The notes below the pieces were generated by a model, which had not been told where the DNA came from, searched no databases, and worked only from the letters and a program-made list of their open reading frames with translations. A program made the position numbers and the translations under genes. Below, in pieces: positions 1,847-26,419 of a stretch of 55,976 bases of DNA. Numbering within the stretch: the stretch's first letter is position 1; every line of letters begins with the position of its first letter. The DNA is from Actinomycetota bacterium. Its GTDB lineage: Bacteria > Actinomycetota > Thermoleophilia > Solirubrobacterales > 70-9. The stretch covers positions 1-55,976 of the forward strand of contig JBEHWY010000001.1 in assembly GCA_048498975.1 (NCBI GenBank). The letters are read 5' to 3'.

Positions 1847-3196
1847 ATGGGCCTGGCGGTGATCGTGATCGCCAACGACTTCTCGGCGATCAACGTCGCC
1901 CTGCCCACGATGGAGAAGGACTTCGACACCAACGTCAACACGATCCAGTGGGTGGTCAACGCCTACGCGCTGACCTTCGGCGTGATGATCGTCACCGGCG
2001 GCCGCCTCGCCGACATGTTCGGGCGCCGCAACGCCTTCTTCCTCGGCACCGCGATCTTCGCCACGATGTCGGCGCTCGGCGGCGCCGCCCAGAGCGAGGC
2101 CTGGCTGATCGCCAGCCGCACCCTGATGGGGATCGGCGGGGCGCTGATGTGGCCGGCGATCCTCGGCATGACCTTCGCGATCCTGCCCGAAGAGAAGGCG
2201 GGCCTGGCCGGCGGCATCATCCTCGGCGCGGCGGGCCTCGGCAACGCGCTCGGGCCGCTGATCGGCGGCGTCCTCACCGACCTCGCCAGTTGGCGCTGGA
2301 TCTTCTTCCTCAACGTCCCGATCGCCCTCTTCGCCGTGCTCGTCACCTACTTCCTGGTCCACGTCGAGGAGCCCGAGAGCGCCGACCACAAGATCGACTA
2401 CGGCGGGATCACGACCCTCTCGATCGGGCTCGTCTCGCTGCTGGTAGCGCTCGACCAAGTCGACGACTGGGGCTGGGGCGACCCGCGGGTGATCGGGCTG
2501 CTGGCGACCTGCGTCGTCATGCTCGCCGCCTTCGGGCCGATCGAGCGCCGCGCCGGCGCGCACGCGCTGGTGCCGAAGGAGGTGATGCGCAACGAGAGCT
2601 TCACCGCCTCCTGCATCGCGATCCTCTTCATGTCGGCGACCTTCTTCGCGGCGCTGCTCTACCTGCCGCAGTTCATGGAGAAACAGCTCGGCTACTCGCC
2701 GCTGGAAGCCGGCGTCGGGATCCTCCCCTTCCTCGGCACCTTCGCCGTCGTCTCCTTCATCGCCGGCCCGCTCTACAACCGGGTCGGCGCCAAGCCGCTG
2801 GCGGTGCTCGGCGCCCTCTGCATCACCGTCGCGCCGTTCCTGTTCTCCCTCGTCGACAGCGGCTCGGGCTATGACTCGCTGATCGTCGGCATGGTCGTCC
2901 TCGGCGTCGGGGTCGGCAGCTTCTACCCGACGGCGACGACCGCCGGGGTGACCTCGGTCGACAGCTCCCAGACCAGCCTCGCCGGCGGCATCGTCTACAT
3001 GTTCCAGATCGCCGGCGGCTCGATCGGGCTGGGGCTGACGACGACCGTCTTCTCGGCCGCGATCCCGCCCTTCGTCGACGGCGTCAGCGCCGCCTTCCGG
3101 CTCGACGCCTCGCTCTCGCTGGTCGGGTTGCTGATCGCGCTGTTCTTCGTCGGCGGCCGCCTCTTCCCCCGCCGCGCCGCCGCCGACACAGCCTGA
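1847..3196 (+). CDS. MFS transporter (drug:H+ antiporter-like)
   Basis: 449-aa multi-TM ORF with the MFS signature GGRLADMFGRR. There is no canonical start between the upstream in-frame stop (1790) and the ATG at 1847. Confidence 0.85.
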   Translation: MGLAVIVIANDFSAINVALPTMEKDFDTNVNTIQWVVNAYALTFGVMIVTGGRLADMFGRRNAFFLGTAIFATMSALGGAAQSEAWLIASRTLMGIGGALMWPAILGMTFAILPEEKAGLAGGIILGAAGLGNALGPLIGGVLTDLASWRWIFFLNVPIALFAVLVTYFLVHVEEPESADHKIDYGGITTLSIGLVSLLVALDQVDDWGWGDPRVIGLLATCVVMLAAFGPIERRAGAHALVPKEVMRNESFTASCIAILFMSATFFAALLYLPQFMEKQLGYSPLEAGVGILPFLGTFAVVSFIAGPLYNRVGAKPLAVLGALCITVAPFLFSLVDSGSGYDSLIVGMVVLGVGVGSFYPTATTAGVTSVDSSQTSLAGGIVYMFQIAGGSIGLGLTTTVFSAAIPPFVDGVSAAFRLDASLSLVGLLIALFFVGGRLFPRRAAADTA

Positions 3197-3197
3197 G

Positions 3198-3749
3198 CTA
3201 CTGCGCTTCGGTGTTGTGGCCGGGCCCGCCGACGAGCAGGTCTTCGCCCGGACCGCCGGCCAGCCGGTCGTTGCCGGCACCGCCGTAGAGGCGGTCGGCG
3301 CCGGGGCCGCCGAACAGCCAGTCGTCGCCGGGCTGGCCGATCAGTTTGTCGTTGCCCGAACCACCGAGGATCTTGTCGCTGCCGCCGCCCCCGGCGAGGA
3401 TGTCGCGCCCGGGGCCACCGCGCAGGGTCGCCGGCGCCGTGATCGTGCGGCTGACCGCGAAGCGGTCGTCGCCACCGGCCCCGTTGAGTTCGAAGCCGAC
3501 GATCGCCGCCGCTTCGCACTGCAGCAGGTTCGGGTTGTTTTCGATGTGGGTGCAGATGCCGCCGCCGACTTCCAGCGGCGCGTTGGCCTCGATCAGGTAG
3601 TAGCGGCCGTCTTCGCTGAGTTCGATCGAGAAGCCGTTGGCGCCCGCGTCGCCGCTCAGCAGCAGCGTCAGCCCCCGTTCACTCGCATGCGCGGCCGTGG
3701 CCAGCATGGCCACGAGGACGGTGACGAGGATCGAGATCGCCTTCTTCAT
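3198..3749 (-). CDS. secreted calcium-binding protein with RTX/hemolysin-type GGxGxD repeats
   Basis: Signal peptide MKKAISILVTVLVAMLATAAHA. The C-terminal half carries tandem nonapeptides (GGSGNDKLIG, GGPGADRLYG, GGAGNDRLAG, GGPGEDLLVG). Confidence 0.8.
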   Translation of the reverse strand: MKKAISILVTVLVAMLATAAHASERGLTLLLSGDAGANGFSIELSEDGRYYLIEANAPLEVGGGICTHIENNPNLLQCEAAAIVGFELNGAGGDDRFAVSRTITAPATLRGGPGRDILAGGGGSDKILGGSGNDKLIGQPGDDWLFGGPGADRLYGGAGNDRLAGGPGEDLLVGGPGHNTEAQ

Positions 3750-20054: not shown

Positions 20055-21230
20055 CTACGCCTGCGTCGCAGGGGATTTGGCCGGGTTCCAGCGGGTGCGG
20101 GGATCGATCGAGGACTCGATCGCGTTGCCCTTGTAGCGCTCGATCGCGTGGATCATCGTCTCCACCAGCTCCTCGCCCAGCAGCGTCGGCTGCAGGCCGA
20201 GGTCGAGCAGCTTGGTGTGGATCGCGTTGTAGTAGTGCTCTTCCTTCTCCACGCGCGGGTTCTCGTAGTGCTGGATCTCGACGCTGTAGCCGAGGTGCTC
20301 GCCGGCTTCCTTGACCAGCTCGGCCAGCTGCAGGACCGAGAACTGCTCGGTGAACTGGTTGAAGACGCGGTACTCGCCGCGCTCGGCCGGGTTGGTGGCG
20401 GCGAGCTCGACGCAGGCGAGGGTGTCGCGGATGTTGAGGAAGCCGCGGGTCTGATGGCCGGCGCCGTAGACGGTCAGCGGGTGGCCGATCACCGCCTGCA
20501 GGCAGAAGCGGTTGAGCACGGTGCCGAACAGCTCGTCGTAGTCGAAGCGGGTGATGAGGCGCTCGTCGCGCGAGGTCTCGTCGGTTTCGACGCCGTAGAC
20601 GACGCCCTGGTTGAGGTCGGTCGCGCGCAGGCCCCAGGTGCGGCAGGCGAAGTGGATGTTGGTCGAGTCGTGGACCTTCGAGCAGTGGTACAGCGAGCCG
20701 GGCAGTTTGGGGAACGGCAGCGTGTCCTTGCGCCCCTTGTGCTCGATCTCGATGTAGCCCTCCTCGATGTCGATGTTGGGCTGGCCGTACTCGCCCATCG
20801 TCCCCAGCTTCACCAGGTGGGCGTCGGGGACGTGGTCGCGCATCGCGAACAGCAGGTTGAGGTTGCCGATCACGTTGGCGTGCTGGGTTTCGACCGCGCG
20901 CTCGCGGGAGAGCATCGAGAACGGCGCCGAGGCCTGCTGGCCGTAATGGACGACGACCTCGGGCTTGGTCTCGGCGACGACCTCTTCGAGGAAGTCGCCG
21001 TCCTCGATCGCGCCCTCGTAGCTGCGGATCTGCTCGCCGGAGACCTCGCGCCAGGCGGCGACGCGGCCCTCGAGCGAGGCGATCGGGGTCAGCGAGCCGC
21101 TGCCGTGTTCGTGGTGCCAGCGGCGCCGGGAGAAGTTGTCGACGACCGAGACCTCGTGGCCGCGGGCCGAGAAGCGGAGCGCGGTGGGCCAGCCGAGGTA
21201 GCCGTCACCGCCCAGGATCAGAACTCGCAT
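20055..21230 (-). CDS. sqdB: UDP-sulfoquinovose synthase
   Basis: MRVLILGGDGYLGWP Rossmann fold, plus the SQD1/SqdB-specific block KLGTMGEYGQPNIDIEEGYIEIEHKGRKDTLPFPKLPGSLYHCSKVHDS...WGLRATDLNQGVVYGV...LNRFCLQAVIGHPLTVYGAGHQTRGF. Confidence 0.85.
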   Translation of the reverse strand: MRVLILGGDGYLGWPTALRFSARGHEVSVVDNFSRRRWHHEHGSGSLTPIASLEGRVAAWREVSGEQIRSYEGAIEDGDFLEEVVAETKPEVVVHYGQQASAPFSMLSRERAVETQHANVIGNLNLLFAMRDHVPDAHLVKLGTMGEYGQPNIDIEEGYIEIEHKGRKDTLPFPKLPGSLYHCSKVHDSTNIHFACRTWGLRATDLNQGVVYGVETDETSRDERLITRFDYDELFGTVLNRFCLQAVIGHPLTVYGAGHQTRGFLNIRDTLACVELAATNPAERGEYRVFNQFTEQFSVLQLAELVKEAGEHLGYSVEIQHYENPRVEKEEHYYNAIHTKLLDLGLQPTLLGEELVETMIHAIERYKGNAIESSIDPRTRWNPAKSPATQA

Positions 21231-21316
21231 AGGCGGCGCAGCGTAGCTGAACCCGCGGCGCAAACGGCTTCGGACCGGCCCCGGCGCAGCTGCCCCCTCA
21301 ACCTAGAATCGCCCCG

Positions 21317-22735
21317 GTGAGAGCGCGCCTGGAGAATGCCTGCGGCGGCCGACGGGCGGCTGTCGCGCTGGCCCTCGTCTTCCTGCTCGGGCTCGGTCTG
21401 CGCCTCGACTACGCGATCCGCGCCCCCCAGCACCCGGTCGACGACGCCCGCGCCTACGCGCGGATCTCGCGGGCGCTGTACGAGGGCGAGGGCTACACGC
21501 AGGGGCCGGGATTCGGCTACCTGCAGTCGGCCTCCAATTATCAGCCGGGGCTGCCGCTGTTCGTGACCGGGCTCTACGAGGTGCGCCGCGCGCCCGACGA
21601 ACGCTTCGCCCGGATCGTGCTGGCACTGCTCAGCTCGCTGGCGATCCCCTTCGCCTTCGCGATCGGGCGCCGCCTCGGCGGCCCCGTGGGCCGACGGGCC
21701 GATTTCGGTGGACTATCACCCGAAATCGGCCCGTCGGCCGCGGTGGTTGCCGGGTTGATGGCGGCGACGGTGGTGGCGGTGTACCCGGCGCTGCTCGAGT
21801 ACACGGGGATGCTGATGACCGAGCCGGTGGGGACGGCGCTGCTCGCCGGCACGGTCCTCTTGCTGCTGCGCGCGCGCGAACGCGAACGGCCCTGGCCGTG
21901 GGCGGCGACCGGGCTGGCGATCGGGGCGCTGGCGATGCTGCGGCCCGAGTACCTCCTCCTCGTCCTCGTCCTGCCGGCGCTGATGCTGCTGCCCTGGCAC
22001 CGCGACGCCGCCGGGCGCGGGCGGCGGTTGCGGCTGGCGGCGCTGATGGCGGGCTGCGCCCTGCTGGTGCTGGCGCCGTGGACGGTGCGCAACTTCATCG
22101 CCTTCGAACGGCTGGTGCCGGTCTCGACCGGCGGCGGCCAGGTCCTCTACGAGGGCAGCTACCTGCCCGCCGGCCCCAACCCCGAAAACATCACCGACCA
22201 CCTGCTCGCGGAATACCCGTGGATTCGGCGCCAGCTCGGGCCGCTGCCCGGGCCGATCTACCGCGGCCAGGCGGTGGCGGCGCTGGCCCACCGCCTCCAC
22301 CCCGGCGAGAACACCGACACGGCGCTGACCGGGATGGCGATCGACGCCTACTGGACGGCGGCCCGCTCCGAACCGCTCGACCTCGCCGGCTTCCTTGCCG
22401 GCAAGGTCTGGTTCGCCTGGACCGATCCGGCCCGCGGCGTGATGCGCTTCCCGCTCTGGCGGGCGCTGCAGATCGCGCTGCTGGCGGCGGCCGCGCTGGG
22501 CCTCGCCGTCAGCCTCGCCCGACGCCGCTTCGACGTCGCCGCGATCGCCGCGGTCCTCCTCGTCGTCACCCTCGTGCAGGGGCTCTACATCGCCTCGCCG
22601 CGGCGCACCCTGACCCTGCTGCCGCTGACCTCGGCCCTGGCCGGCTACGGCGCCGTCTGGCTCTGGGCTCAGATATGGAAGGTCGGCCCGCGGGTTTCCC
22701 AGAAGAGGTCGGAGTATTCGCCGGCGTCGACGTAG
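21317..22735 (+). CDS. GT-C fold membrane glycosyltransferase (GT39/ArnT/PMT_2-like), paralog A
   Basis: 472 aa with more than 10 TM segments. First-loop acidic motif PVDDARAY. GTG start lies 7 nt after TAGAAT, so the mRNA may be leaderless. Confidence 0.8.
   Translation: MRARLENACGGRRAAVALALVFLLGLGLRLDYAIRAPQHPVDDARAYARISRALYEGEGYTQGPGFGYLQSASNYQPGLPLFVTGLYEVRRAPDERFARIVLALLSSLAIPFAFAIGRRLGGPVGRRADFGGLSPEIGPSAAVVAGLMAATVVAVYPALLEYTGMLMTEPVGTALLAGTVLLLLRARERERPWPWAATGLAIGALAMLRPEYLLLVLVLPALMLLPWHRDAAGRGRRLRLAALMAGCALLVLAPWTVRNFIAFERLVPVSTGGGQVLYEGSYLPAGPNPENITDHLLAEYPWIRRQLGPLPGPIYRGQAVAALAHRLHPGENTDTALTGMAIDAYWTAARSEPLDLAGFLAGKVWFAWTDPARGVMRFPLWRALQIALLAAAALGLAVSLARRRFDVAAIAAVLLVVTLVQGLYIASPRRTLTLLPLTSALAGYGAVWLWAQIWKVGPRVSQKRSEYSPAST
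21689..21739. repeat. 51-nt perfect palindrome (20-bp stem, 11-nt loop) in frame inside GT-C paralog A
   Basis: GGCCGACGGGCCGATTTCGG-TGGACTATCAC-CCGAAATCGGCCCGTCGGCC. It encodes the core of the peptide GRRADFGGLSPEIGPSA. Confidence 0.9.
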
Positions 22736-23339
22736 TAGCTGGCCTTGCCGTGGAAGTTGCCGACGTCGAAGACGGCGCTGCCGGTCTTGTTCGCCTTCTT
22801 GCCGCCCCTGGTACCCGGGATCTCGTAACCCGATTCTTCGAGCAGGTAGAGCCGCAGCGGGATCTTGCCGGCGCCCTTGACCGTCATCTTCACCTTGCCG
22901 CCGCCGAGCTTCTTCACCTTGACCTGCGTTCGCGCGAGACTTCGGCCTGGGCGAAGGCGCCGGCGGCTTCGAAGCCGATCGTCAGTTTGGTCGCGGTCTT
23001 CGCCGCGTAGGAGAACTTGCCGGCGGCGTTGGCCTGGACGGTGAGCGTCTTGAATTCCTCGACCGAGTAGTAGCCGCCCTTGGGGATCCATTTGCTCAGC
23101 TTCACGGTGACGGGACCGGAGACGGGCTTGTTGGAGTCGTCGCGCACGACCCCTTCGATCGTCCGCGGCTTGCCCGGCTTGTCCGCACAGAGCACGGACC
23201 CGACGCTGTCCCGGTTGTGCCGGCCCTTGCCGCCGCACTTGAGCGAGATCGTGGCGGCCGAGGCGCTGGCGGCGACGGCGAGCAGGACGAGGGCGGCGAG
23301 AGCGAGAGGGAGCGCTGAGTGCAGGCGGCGTCTGGTCAT
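22669..23339 (-). pseudogene. secreted Ig-like/CarboxypepD_reg-like protein, apparent frameshift near 22925-22940
   Basis: A signal peptide (MTRRRLHSALPLALAALVLLAVAASASA) and N-terminal domain run in one frame to the stop at 22914. Protein-like sequence then continues in another frame (RTQVKVKKLGGGKVKMTVKG...FHI) to 22669. Confidence 0.55.
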
Positions 23340-23449
23340 GCGCGGCACCCTATTCCAGCCGCTCTCGGCGTCAGCGCCGCGCGCGGAGCGCACTGGGTGA
23401 AAACCACGGGGGCGGCGTCGGCCGCTCACACCCGCCCCCCCCGCGGCGG

Positions 23450-23833
23450 CTAATCGAGGTTGTACTTGACCTGGAAGACCAGCCTCACGTACATCGGCGT
23501 GTCGGCGCCTTTGAACTCGCACTTGTACTTCACCTTGTCGGGGGCGGTGGCGAGCACCGTCGGCGTGCAGTAGAAGCCGATCACGCTCTTCGGCTCCTCC
23601 ACCCGCAGGGCGAGGATCCGGTTCATCACCTTCTTGGCGTAGCCGCAGGTGGCGTATTCGGCCTGGACCTTGTTCACGTCGCGCGAGGTCAGCGTGCCTT
23701 TGACGGTCTTGCCGATCACGTTTTTGGAGTGCGTCGTGCAGGTCTTGGGCCCGCCCTTGGCGGCGGCGGTGCCGCTGAAGGCGATGACGGCGCAGAGGAC
23801 GGCGCCGGTGAGGATCAGGGAGATGCGTCGCAT
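23450..23833 (-). CDS. small secreted cysteine-containing protein (127 aa)
   Basis: AAGGAG SD upstream of the ATG at 23833. Signal peptide MRRISLILTGAVLCAVIAFSGTAAA. The mature part has 4 Cys. Confidence 0.7.
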   Translation of the reverse strand: MRRISLILTGAVLCAVIAFSGTAAAKGGPKTCTTHSKNVIGKTVKGTLTSRDVNKVQAEYATCGYAKKVMNRILALRVEEPKSVIGFYCTPTVLATAPDKVKYKCEFKGADTPMYVRLVFQVKYNLD

Positions 23834-23966
23834 GTGCGGGGGCTCCTTGTCGGTGTACGGGTCCCGAAGATCGGCCCCGGCGGGTTGGATCTTTAGCCCG
23901 GTCGGGCCGAGCCGGACACTCGCCGACAGCGCCGGCCGCCCCGCGCGCGGATAGCCTGACTCGGCT

Positions 23967-25388
23967 GTGACCGCCGTCGCCGACCGCATTCGGGCGCTGC
24001 CCCAGCGCCTCGGTAAGAGGACCCTCATCGCGCTGGTCGGGATCGCGCTGCTCGGCTTGCTGCTGCGCGGCGTCGCCGTGGTCCACCCGGTCGCCAACCC
24101 CGCCGACGACTCCCACGCCTACTTTGGCCTCGCCAAGGCGCTCTACGAAGAAGGCAGCTTCGGCGGGCCCGACTTCGAAAACTCGAGCGACTGGTCGCCG
24201 GGCGCGCCGCTGCTCTACGCGGCCAGCTTCGTCCTCACCGGCGGCGCCCGCGAAGGCACCGCCCGCGCCGTCGAGGCCCTCCTCGGCACCGCCGCGATCC
24301 TCGTCGTCTTCGCCCTAACCCGCCGCCTCGCCCTGGGCTCGCGGGGCCGACGGGCCGATTTCGGGCGACTATCACCCGAAATCGGCCCGTCGGCGGCTGG
24401 GGTCGTGGGGTTGGTGGCGGCTTTTGGGGTGGCGGTTTATCCGGCGTTCTTGCATTCGACGGGGGAGTTGATGAGCGAGCCGCCGGCGATGCTGACGCTG
24501 CCGGCCGCGGTGCTCGCCTTCCTCTGGGCGGGTGATGAGGAGCGGCGCTGGTGGGCCTGGCTGGTGCCGGGGGTGCTGTTCGGGCTGACGGCGATGTTCC
24601 GGCCCGAGTACCTGTTCGTCGGCGCCGCCTTCGTCGTCCTCGCCGCGCTGCGGGTGGGGCCGGCGCGCGGCTGGCGACCGGGACTGGCCGGCGCGGCGCT
24701 GCTGGCCGCGGCGCTGGTCGGGGTGATCCTCCCCTGGACGATCCGCAACGCCGACGTGCTCGGCCGCCTGGTGCCGATCTCGACCGGCAGCGGCAAGGCG
24801 CTCTACGTCGGCACCTTCCTCCCCGCTGACGGCGAATACCAGCGGGTCAAGGCGATCCTCTACGAGCGCAAGACGGGGATCTCGCTGCCGCCGCAGTCCG
24901 AAGCGCTGAACGAAGTCGACCCGACCCCACTCTTCGACGAAGTCGCGGAAAGCCGCTATCCCGACCTCCCCCGCGACTCCGCCCTCGGCAAGATCGGCAA
25001 GCAGAACTTCTCCAAGTACTTCGGCGAAGACCCGCTCGGCTACCTGGCGATGACCGCGCGCAAGGTCGGCCGGATGTGGAGCAGCGGGCCGGGCGCGGCG
25101 ATGAGCAGCACCCCCGGCCGCGTCGTCCAGATCCTGCTCGTCGCCCTCGGCCTCGCCGGCTTCGCCTGGCTCGGGCTGCGCCGCCGCTGGTGGGATCTGG
25201 TGGCGATGGCGACGCCGATCGTCCTCGTCACCGCGGTCGGCGCGATCTCGCTGGCGGCGCCGCGGCGCAACGAGGTGCTGATGACGCTCGTCTTTCCGCT
25301 CGCCGCCCTGGCCCTGGGTTGGGGGGCCGCGGCCCTATCCTCCGCACGCCAATGGTCCTCCAAGCAGGCATCTTCCCCGCCGAACTGA
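23967..25388 (+). CDS. GT-C fold membrane glycosyltransferase (GT39/ArnT/PMT_2-like), paralog B
   Basis: 473 aa with the same architecture as 21317-22735. First-loop motif PADDSHAY. GTG start. Confidence 0.8.
   Translation: MTAVADRIRALPQRLGKRTLIALVGIALLGLLLRGVAVVHPVANPADDSHAYFGLAKALYEEGSFGGPDFENSSDWSPGAPLLYAASFVLTGGAREGTARAVEALLGTAAILVVFALTRRLALGSRGRRADFGRLSPEIGPSAAGVVGLVAAFGVAVYPAFLHSTGELMSEPPAMLTLPAAVLAFLWAGDEERRWWAWLVPGVLFGLTAMFRPEYLFVGAAFVVLAALRVGPARGWRPGLAGAALLAAALVGVILPWTIRNADVLGRLVPISTGSGKALYVGTFLPADGEYQRVKAILYERKTGISLPPQSEALNEVDPTPLFDEVAESRYPDLPRDSALGKIGKQNFSKYFGEDPLGYLAMTARKVGRMWSSGPGAAMSSTPGRVVQILLVALGLAGFAWLGLRRRWWDLVAMATPIVLVTAVGAISLAAPRRNEVLMTLVFPLAALALGWGAAALSSARQWSSKQASSPPN
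24345..24395. repeat. second copy of the 51-nt palindrome, in frame inside GT-C paralog B
   Basis: GGCCGACGGGCCGATTTCGG-GCGACTATCAC-CCGAAATCGGCCCGTCGGCG. It matches the copy at 21689-21739 at 48 of 51 nt, while the flanking DNA is much more divergent. Confidence 0.9.
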
Positions 25389-26419
25389 CGGCCCTGCGCG
25401 GCGCCGGTCTGCTGATCGCCGCCCTGCTGATCGTCTACGCGGTCGTCCGCCGCCACACGCTGCGCAACGCCGACGTGCTGCTGCTGCTCGCCGCCGGCGT
25501 CGGCCTGGCCCTGGTCACCGGCACCGAAATCATCGACGGCCTGCTCTCCGCCTTCTCCTTCGAAAAGGGCAACGGCGGCCGCATCCTCGGCCTCGCCGTC
25601 TTCGCGATCTTCGCCCTCTTCCTACTGACGCTGCGGGCGCTCTCGCAGACGGCGCGCAACGCGCGCCAGCTCTCGGCGGCGCTCGAGGGGCTGGCCTGGG
25701 AGGAGTTCCGCCAGGCCGGCCTACCGGAGCGCTTCCGCGGCAAGGTCGCGATCCTGATCCCGGCCTACAACGAGGCCGAGAACGTCGGCGTCGTGCTCAA
25801 CCAGATCCCGGCCGAGGTCTGCGGCGTGCCGACCGCCGTGCTCGTCGTCGACGACGGCTCGCGCGACGGCACCGGCGACGTCGCCGCCGAGCACGGCGCG
25901 CTCGTCGCCCGCCACGTCACCAACCGCGGCGGCGGCGCGGCCCTGCGCACCGGCTACCGGCTGATGGTCGAATCCGGCGCCGAGATCGTCGTCACCCTCG
26001 ACGCCGACGGCCAGCACCGCCCCGACCAGATGGAGCGGCTGGTGGCGCCGATCCTCGACGGCGAAGTCGACGTCGCCCACGGCTCGCGCGTCCTCGGCGC
26101 CGCCGACCGCAACCACTTCGCCCGCGAGCTCGGCATCGTCTTCTTCAACCGCCTCGTCTCCTTCATCACCCGCACTCACGTCACCGACTGCTCCAACGGC
26201 TACCGCGCGGTGCGGACCACCGTGCTGCCCCAGCTCGTCCTGCGCCAGGAGCAGTTCCACACCTCGGAGTTCATGATCGAGGCGATCAAGCGCGGGATCC
26301 CCGCCCGCGAGATCCCGATCACGGTCGAACAGCGCCTGCACGGCCACTCGAAGAAGCCGGCCGTCTTCCGCTACGGCGTCGGCTTCGCCAACGCCATCGT
26401 CCGCACCTGGCTGCGCTAG
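25352..26419 (+). CDS. GT2 glycosyltransferase (polyprenyl-phosphate sugar synthase-like: DPM1/ArnC/GtrB type) with N-terminal multi-TM domain
   Basis: The internal ATG at 25352 gives MVLQAGIF... followed by about 3-4 TM segments. After those comes AILIPAYNEAENVG...VVDDGSRDGT...DADGQH. The gene overlaps the end of GT-C B by 37 nt. Confidence 0.8.
   Translation: MVLQAGIFPAELTALRGAGLLIAALLIVYAVVRRHTLRNADVLLLLAAGVGLALVTGTEIIDGLLSAFSFEKGNGGRILGLAVFAIFALFLLTLRALSQTARNARQLSAALEGLAWEEFRQAGLPERFRGKVAILIPAYNEAENVGVVLNQIPAEVCGVPTAVLVVDDGSRDGTGDVAAEHGALVARHVTNRGGGAALRTGYRLMVESGAEIVVTLDADGQHRPDQMERLVAPILDGEVDVAHGSRVLGAADRNHFARELGIVFFNRLVSFITRTHVTDCSNGYRAVRTTVLPQLVLRQEQFHTSEFMIEAIKRGIPAREIPITVEQRLHGHSKKPAVFRYGVGFANAIVRTWLR

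Follow-up and report, generated by a model that had tools for sequence, protein, structure and literature searches.

Two neighbouring genes for GT-C glycosyltransferases, paralogs A and B, carry nearly the same 51-nucleotide (nt) palindrome in frame and at homologous positions in a 55,976-nt stretch of DNA from an Actinomycetota bacterium (Thermoleophilia; Solirubrobacterales; 70-9; GenBank assembly GCA_048498975.1, contig JBEHWY010000001.1, positions 1 to 55,976), hereafter called the window. We find that this palindrome is a member of a repeat family dispersed among Thermoleophilia/Solirubrobacterales and often situated in frame within genes, and that it is old in the clade of paralog B and new in paralog A. 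The best explanation of these findings as a whole, and one that we consider probable, is that a copy of a family of repetitive extragenic palindrome (REP) type came to lie in B, and that a short B-to-A gene conversion or template switch then carried it into A.

A dispersed palindromic family with two copies in the window

Copy A (21689..21739, no strand assigned) reads GGCCGACGGGCCGATTTCGG / TGGACTATCAC / CCGAAATCGGCCCGTCGGCC, that is, a perfect 20-base-pair (bp) stem enclosing the 11-nt loop TGGACTATCAC (20+11+20). Copy B (24345..24395, likewise unstranded) differs from it at two loop bases, giving the loop GCGACTATCAC, and at the last base (G), with which the outer pair is lost and 19/20 stem pairs are left; shifted inward by 1 base, copy B also forms a 20-bp stem with a 9-nt loop. 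A preliminary description of the window, made from the sequence alone, had already reported this geometry (a stem of 20 bp, 19 bp in copy B, with an 11-nt loop), the match at 48 of 51 bases and the in-frame span of 17 codons, and our analysis confirmed all three: both copies begin in frame 0 of their open reading frames (ORFs; 21317-22735 and 23967-25388), and on the plus strand they are translated as GRRADFGGLSPEIGPSA and GRRADFGRLSPEIGPSA, respectively. The unit is stop-free in five of its six frames, and its predicted RNA folding energies are -45 and -47 kcal/mol for the two copies (z = -9.2 and -10.2).

At up to 3 mismatches the repeat arm occurs 4 times in the window vs. 0.02 expected from shuffles, and apart from copies A and B the 56 kb hold no perfect hairpin whose stem reaches 14 bp; a search with an nhmmer profile made from 65 full copies of other genomes found no further degenerate copies there. 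An arm-like 16/20 match at 21347-21366 (GGCCGACGGGCGGCTGTCGC) falls within CGGRRAA, an N-terminal stretch of paralog A that is conserved in orthologs, and is probably due to chance. A larger inverted repeat around the copies was likewise rejected, with the mirror complementarity of the 180-nt flanks at 0.28-0.29 vs. a null of 0.31 and with BLAST matches that were short and due to chance only. Rfam covariance models (positions 21000-25600, E <= 1) gave no relevant match, and the T run 3' of a GC-rich hairpin that marks an intrinsic Rho-independent terminator is absent after both window copies and after the family consensus.

Scanning with a 19-nt arm of the repeat, with one genome per species, we identified more than 104 loci among the matches listed, nearly all of them in metagenome-assembled genomes (MAGs) of Thermoleophilia/Solirubrobacterales, with at least 12 loci, each of 8 kb, on the 2.86-Mb chromosome OY970365.1, at least 18 in the MAG JAENWU01 and at least 8 in OY968772.1. 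Single-arm matches in Proteobacteria, Archaea and other groups were taken as chance 19-mers, the second arm never being present. When both arms were required, with at most 4 mismatches in each, 67 full copies were obtained including the two in the window; among the matches listed these were confined to Thermoleophilia/Solirubrobacterales or to MAGs labelled just Actinomycetes, and the spacing between arm starts was always 30 nt. In the family consensus, [C/G]GCCGAYGGGCCGATTTCGG is followed by a loop of 11 nt and by CCGAAATCGGCCCRTCGGC[G/C], and the loop is most commonly GAGATATAGGC or its reverse complement. GACG...CGTC is symmetric, standing in each of the two arms as part of the stem and 4 nt away from either end, and GTAG does not occur. 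Beyond the 51 nt the flanks show only a weak one-sided AACCNCC consensus, and no target-site duplication was seen in the 30-nt flanks of 66 aligned copies.

As to how many copies there are and whether they lie within or between genes, a point raised with the preliminary description, we found many copies of both kinds. In other genomes, 27 of the 61 judged copies sit 0-15 nt 3' of the stop codon of a coding-like ORF, and 8 of these 27 have a stop on both sides, i.e., they lie between convergent genes. Under a strict in-frame test, which called for a stop-free frame and coding-type periodicity of third-position GC content (GC3) over 180 nt on either side, 21/64 evaluable copies (the window's two included) fell in continuous coding frames, distributed as 8, 9 and 4 over frames 0, 1 and 2; a cruder gene caller placed 28/67 copies within genes. 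Ten host ORFs compared with Pfam all proved to be real proteins, mostly housekeeping ones: DXP synthase (Dxs), an ABC transporter, DnaE (in two genomes), PheT, a PabB/TrpE-like enzyme, an SDR, an FAD oxidase, PriA and a Mur ligase. One DnaE gene on a Thermoleophilia chromosome (L026, 3366-6806, minus strand; L numbers denote our loci) holds two in-frame copies, the second of which (RRRADFGPISPEIGPSA) is cleanly absent from the DnaE gene of L020 (666-4070), a presence/absence difference. This placement near stop codons, together with the in-frame copies within genes, amounts to behaviour like that of REPs and of Rickettsia palindromic elements (RPEs), and the resemblance to RPEs proposed in the preliminary description is thereby upheld.

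We also observed that many intergenic copies have TAA or TAG within ~10 nt before them, inside the weak AACCNCC flank, and that some have the mirror GGYGGTTA on the opposite side, the stops of convergent genes then abutting the hairpin on both sides (loci L005, L015, L023, L031, L038, L058, L068 and L089). The papers that we could search on palindromic repeats in Thermoleophilia or Solirubrobacter contained no relevant description.

How paralog A came by its copy

The host genes encode multi-span membrane proteins, glycosyltransferases of the GT-C fold, as indicated by PF13231 recorded for their orthologs, by an AlphaFold model of paralog A (predicted local distance difference test score (pLDDT) 88.7, predicted template modelling score (pTM) 0.89) and by Foldseek, in which that model matched STT3, AglB, PglB and ArnT (E from 1e-6 to 1e-4). 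Paralog A (472 amino acids (aa), PMT_2/ArnT-like, 21317..22735, plus strand) holds copy A in the loop that joins helix 109-121 to helix 141-159, and paralog B (473 aa, 23967..25388, plus strand) holds copy B in the homologous loop. The surroundings had been judged only loosely similar by eye, and rightly so: the two proteins are identical at 36-38% of residues (38% by BLASTP), the best DNA block reaches 68% over 600 nt and the flanks are not near-identical, whereas the element is 94% identical at the DNA level.

Around 100 orthologs of paralog A, the closest of them at 82-85% identity, read GRRL[AG]G[PST]xAGL at this point without any insert, and the window protein alone has 20 additional residues. 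Its gain relative to these orthologs is 60 nt, made up of the palindrome and of 9 nt (GCGGTGGTT; 21740..21748, plus strand; residues AVV) that align by codon with the three codons 3' of the element in B (GCTGGGGTC); the 51 nt of the preliminary description thus hold for the palindrome and fall short of what the gene gained. In all the syntenic orthologs of paralog B with 82-86% identity, those of L105/L107, L108, L110, L111 and L112, the element occupies the same codon position with the frame unchanged. More distant B orthologs comprise 450-aa forms (ERLGGRWVGLL) without an insert and others with different inserts of 10-37 residues, and across B orthologs the length ranges from 450 to 488 aa, with a loop of widely varying length. 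An insertion relative to related GT-C proteins, as first described, is accordingly what we see in A, while in B the element is an old one shared by the nearest orthologs; presence of the 17 residues in all orthologs, the finding that was to count against an insertion, is contradicted for A and seen in part for B alone.

One candidate ortholog of paralog A, L111_A, was rejected at 48% identity. We take L111_A (L111 3743-5215), L113_A (L113 1454-2935) and L114_A (L114 997-2496), genes of 490-499 aa at the syntenic position of A, as a third, divergent GT-C type, the identity having been measured for L111_A only and the other two being assigned by similar length and loop sequence. In the same loop, these divergent genes have inserts of 30-40 residues in L111 and L114, and a shorter one in L113.

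Several features link copy A with copy B. Codon position, frame and orientation of the element are identical in the two genes, and the loop motif GACTATCAC is exclusive to these copies, being absent from the other 65 of the 67; the closest to it elsewhere is the loop of the L112 B ortholog (GGGACCATCAC), and an exact scan of Joint Genome Institute (JGI) metagenome contigs for the loop variant GATTTCGGNNGACTATCACCCGAAATC gave 0 matches. Outside the element, six sites at 21754-21779 in paralog A are derived relative to A orthologs and identical to paralog B: downstream of the element A reads GGG TTG ATG GCG ... GTG GTG GCG GTG, where A orthologs read GGC CTG ATC GCC ... GTC GCG ATC. On the upstream side, CGC CGC CTC (21668-21676) in A matches paralog B. 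Sites diagnostic between A and B are B-like in paralog A at 4 of 13 positions within 45 nt of the element vs. 17 of 370 elsewhere (Fisher p = 0.0035). The shared site, the shared loop, the co-inserted bases and the B-like flank together argue for a transfer from B over a second transposition, with copy B the likely donor of copy A, and recent copying would explain the high identity between the two elements.

The events leading to this state would begin with a family of small repeats that behaves like mobile REP-type DNA in Thermoleophilia/Solirubrobacterales, whose copies just 3' of stop codons would, by analogy with the REP literature, serve as mRNA 3' ends or stabilisers. Since the unit is 51 nt long and nearly free of stops, it could also persist within genes wherever 17 extra residues are tolerated. 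One copy entered paralog B in an ancestor common to at least six of the sampled species, as the position and frame shared among B orthologs show; it went into the loop that follows the RRL motif's invariant Arg. Then, in the lineage of the window, a gene conversion or template switch of ~100 nt would have copied a patch from B to A, 2.6 kb upstream, which took in the element, the three codons behind it and some substitutions in the flanks; from the diagnostic sites we place this short and patchy tract, with approximate limits, at 21668..21782 (plus strand).

A number of observations weigh against such a transfer. The diagnostic sites at 21648-21667 remain A-like, which makes the tract very short and patchy; flanks with ~68% identity between A and B are a poor substrate for homologous recombination; and when we looked in a second test for an excess of matches to B among derived sites no more than 60 nt from the element, the result was not significant (p = 0.19). 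The GCGGTGGTT that follows copy A also resembles the weak family flank GGYGGTT, as would fit a direct insertion. Another copy of the family with the same hairpin loop, situated elsewhere in the genome outside the 56-kb window, is a possible source, and the mobility of the family is itself suggested by copy number and by presence/absence differences alone.

The alternative is that two members of one repeat subfamily were inserted independently into the homologous loop of each paralog, through target preference or tolerance of the loop. The loop is indeed a recurrent site of palindromes, with examples in L113_B, L114_A, L114_B and L115_B and a hairpin-forming insert in L116_A/P0041, and presence/absence differences of the repeat are found elsewhere, e.g., in DnaE; the resemblance of the 9 nt 3' of copy A to the family flank consensus counts on the same side. 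Two such insertions would, however, have to agree in codon position, frame and orientation, to have in common a loop variant that matches at 9/11 bases between them and occurs in 0/65 other copies, and to be accompanied by B-like substitutions clustered just outside the element in A. We consider independent insertion unlikely, and yet the ~68% flanks, the p = 0.19 test, the flank-like GCGGTGGTT and a view limited to the window leave it an appreciable probability. Gene conversion is on balance the best supported of the three explanations put forward in the preliminary description, through the shared loop variant and the B-like flanks.

Two further readings have a negligible claim. If the 17 residues were an ordinary loop ancestral in the GT-C family and the DNA palindrome incidental to it, the related residues at this point in the nearest B orthologs would be accounted for, but these residues are missing in the ~100 A orthologs and in many B orthologs, the same 51-nt sequence stands in all three frames of unrelated genes and also between genes, and an element 94% identical in DNA is set in proteins sharing 36-38% of residues. 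That an assembly or binning artefact duplicated a segment seems hardly credible either: the window apparently comes from a metagenome-type assembly, and a frameshift in a neighbouring gene could be an assembly error, but the two copies have clearly different flanks on one contig and differ at 3/51 bases, and the element of paralog B is also present at syntenic loci of independent assemblies.

Hairpins in the post-RRL loop and their effect on the protein

We also asked how far the hairpin itself is under selection, using the mean pairwise divergence among six B copies. Divergence is 0.135 in the arms, 0.50 in the loop and 0.23-0.25 in the 60-nt flanks, compared with 0.142 for the whole gene; third codon positions diverge at 0.123 in the arms vs. 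0.237 in the remainder of the gene, and the arms evolve only ~2x slower than synonymous sites. The B-copy stems retain 19/20 pairs in three species and 16-17/20 in L108, L111 and L112, and a two-sided change in the inner stem (CGG/CCG to CCC/GGG) is common to L105, L110 and L111. Strong conservation at the nucleotide level is rejected, as the arm divergence of 0.135 is close to the gene average of 0.142 and 3/6 stems are decaying. The pattern fits a slow decay of the stems with some structural or repeat-family constraint, not a strongly selected function; nucleotide-level selection, another of the explanations offered at the outset, is only weakly supported by these figures (0.135 vs. 0.237, with half the stems decaying).

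Our analysis also revealed further palindromes in the same loop. The insert of L113_B (L113 ~3370-3425) contains the palindrome CGGGTTCGCGATAACCCGCG...CGCGGGTAACTGCGAACTCGG, that of L114_A (L114 1366-1411) is a palindrome with a 17-bp stem, that of L115_B (L115 ~2835-2853) is a short palindrome, and that of L116_A/P0041 (L116 ~2950-3030) has a different sequence whose DNA folds into hairpins. The insert of L114_B belongs to a second palindromic family, likewise dispersed (GAGGTTGCCTTTTSC...). This second family consists of GAGGTTGCCTTTTSC, ~13 nt and then the reverse complement, and occurs in GT-C genes of other Solirubrobacterales, with sites at L114 1740-1782 and 3368-3410, L111 4486-4528 and L102 3838-3880, i.e., inside L114_A and L111_A and also in L102; in one genome it is found in both GT-C genes, at different positions.

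The recurrence of palindromes at the post-RRL loop can be explained by insertion tolerance. Since several unrelated palindromes occur there in both paralog lineages and one was probably copied between paralogs, a hairpin at exactly that point may also be selected. It would then be kept in both genes for a role at the RNA or DNA level, such as a translational pause, an RNase site or a protein-binding site, and we regard this as rather improbable. In its favour are the great stability of the structure (-45 to -47 kcal/mol), the slower divergence of B-ortholog arms relative to their flanks and of arm third positions relative to those of the gene, the two-sided inner-stem swap in L105, L110 and L111, and the unrelated palindromes recurring at this loop in other lineages. 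Set against these are the ~100 A orthologs and the 450-aa B forms without any insert, the stems decaying to 16-17/20 pairs in L108, L111 and L112, an arm divergence equal to the gene-wide average, and the presence of the same repeat in many unrelated genes and at intergenic sites. The related idea that a strong mRNA/DNA hairpin is selected precisely here, with the repeat family domesticated for it, we hold to be similarly doubtful. If true, translation might for example pause at the hairpin once the transmembrane helix before it has been made, or the hairpin might define a processing site.

At the protein level, helix 109-121 of paralog A terminates in Arg119, the invariant Arg of the RRL motif, and the insert comes after it. 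In the AlphaFold model the insert has a mean pLDDT of 57-58, falling below 50 at residues 126-132, while the rest is confident, which suggests that it would be translated as a flexible, tolerated loop; it probably contributes nothing to enzyme function. The positive-inside rule suggests a cytoplasmic location for this loop, in conflict with ArnT-type numbering, which presumably puts it outside.

Third-codon-position G/C skew in paralog B flips at the element, from -0.60 over the 60 codons upstream to +0.62 over the 60 downstream, with -0.14 in the rest of the gene, and L108_B shows a similar pattern. Downstream of the element in paralog A the value is +0.48 vs. +0.14 to +0.22 in element-free orthologs. 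The regions concerned are 24165-24575 and 21509-21920 of the window, along with the B orthologs of L105, L108, L110, L111 and L112, and a larger inverted repeat is excluded as the cause.

Between the paralogs lies a small secreted-protein gene (22669-23343, minus strand) that is split over two frames relative to its 221-aa ortholog in L105: tblastn assigns frame -2 to residues 29-133 and frame -1 to residues 138-221, and the two parts meet near 22930. The split may reflect a frameshift, a pseudogene or an assembly error. Its 3' end overlaps that of paralog A by ~66 nt, as it does in L105.

Relation to known repeats and significance

In a survey of GTAG- and CGTC-tagged REPs (Di Nocera et al. 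2013; PMC3733652), most elements are found no farther than ~20 nt from the 3' end of an ORF, frequently in the space between convergent genes; a minority is translated in frame in known genes including DnaE and tRNA synthetases, and related species may have different REPs at approximately one site of a given gene. REPs in general measure 20-40 bp, and in CGTC-tagged families the stem has 8-9 bp and the loop 4-5 nt (PMC3733652). The Thermoleophilia repeat resembles intragenic REPs as a short GC-rich palindrome with many dispersed copies, a location at ORF 3' ends and an in-frame minority that includes DnaE. REP-type repeats may be associated with a RAYT gene, which encodes an IS200/IS605-type tyrosine transposase, and the CGTC type is not known to have a transposase. 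The Thermoleophilia repeat differs from intragenic REPs in its unit of 51 nt with a near-perfect 19-20-bp stem and an 11-nt loop, in an intragenic share of about one third, in having no GTAG and carrying CGTC/GACG symmetrically in both arms instead of as a one-ended tag, and in its host, Actinomycetota (Thermoleophilia), never mentioned in the text of that survey (PMC3733652).

Prokaryotic MITEs (miniature transposable elements with inverted repeats) such as Correia elements and Coxiella QMITEs can also lie in ORFs and add peptide segments (PMC5896051, PMC10969869). Like them, the present repeat is small, non-autonomous and built of inverted ends; unlike them, it is at or under their lower size limit and has no target-site duplication visible in 66 flanks. 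RPEs are likewise named in the REP survey (PMC3733652). The Thermoleophilia repeat shares with RPEs the character of an in-frame palindromic repeat in protein-coding genes that is missing from orthologs, but most of its copies lie between genes, beside stop codons, its unit is shorter than RPE-1, and phylum and lifestyle differ. RPEs reportedly occur in frame in protein-coding genes, essential ones included, where the peptide added is short and falls at surface or loop positions that tolerate it, and they are said to have been interpreted as selfish DNA; the classical RPE-1 measures ~100-150 bp.

The proposed transfer from B to A is like interlocus gene conversion in being short, one-way and between neighbouring paralogs, with a patch more alike between paralogs than between orthologs. 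It is unlike it in that donor and recipient are ~68% identical around the tract and the patch is mainly a heterologous insertion of 60 nt.

The kind of element described here, a translated palindromic repeat of REP/RPE type, is already known from other phyla, and the Thermoleophilia family is one that the papers searched do not mention. The best-known in-frame palindromic repeats are those of Rickettsia and of certain Proteobacteria and Verrucomicrobia, and here we observe behaviour of this kind in free-living soil bacteria of high GC content, a lineage known chiefly through genomes of uncultured members. For annotation, about one third of the copies add 17 residues to their hosts, which include the essential DnaE, PheT, Dxs and PriA, and these added residues can be a source of error in alignments, domain calls and gene trees of Thermoleophilia. 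The two paralogs of the window are an apparent case of a repeat spreading without transposition, by local recombination between neighbours, and the recurrent occupation of their loop provides natural markers for insertion-tolerant sites in GT-C enzymes.

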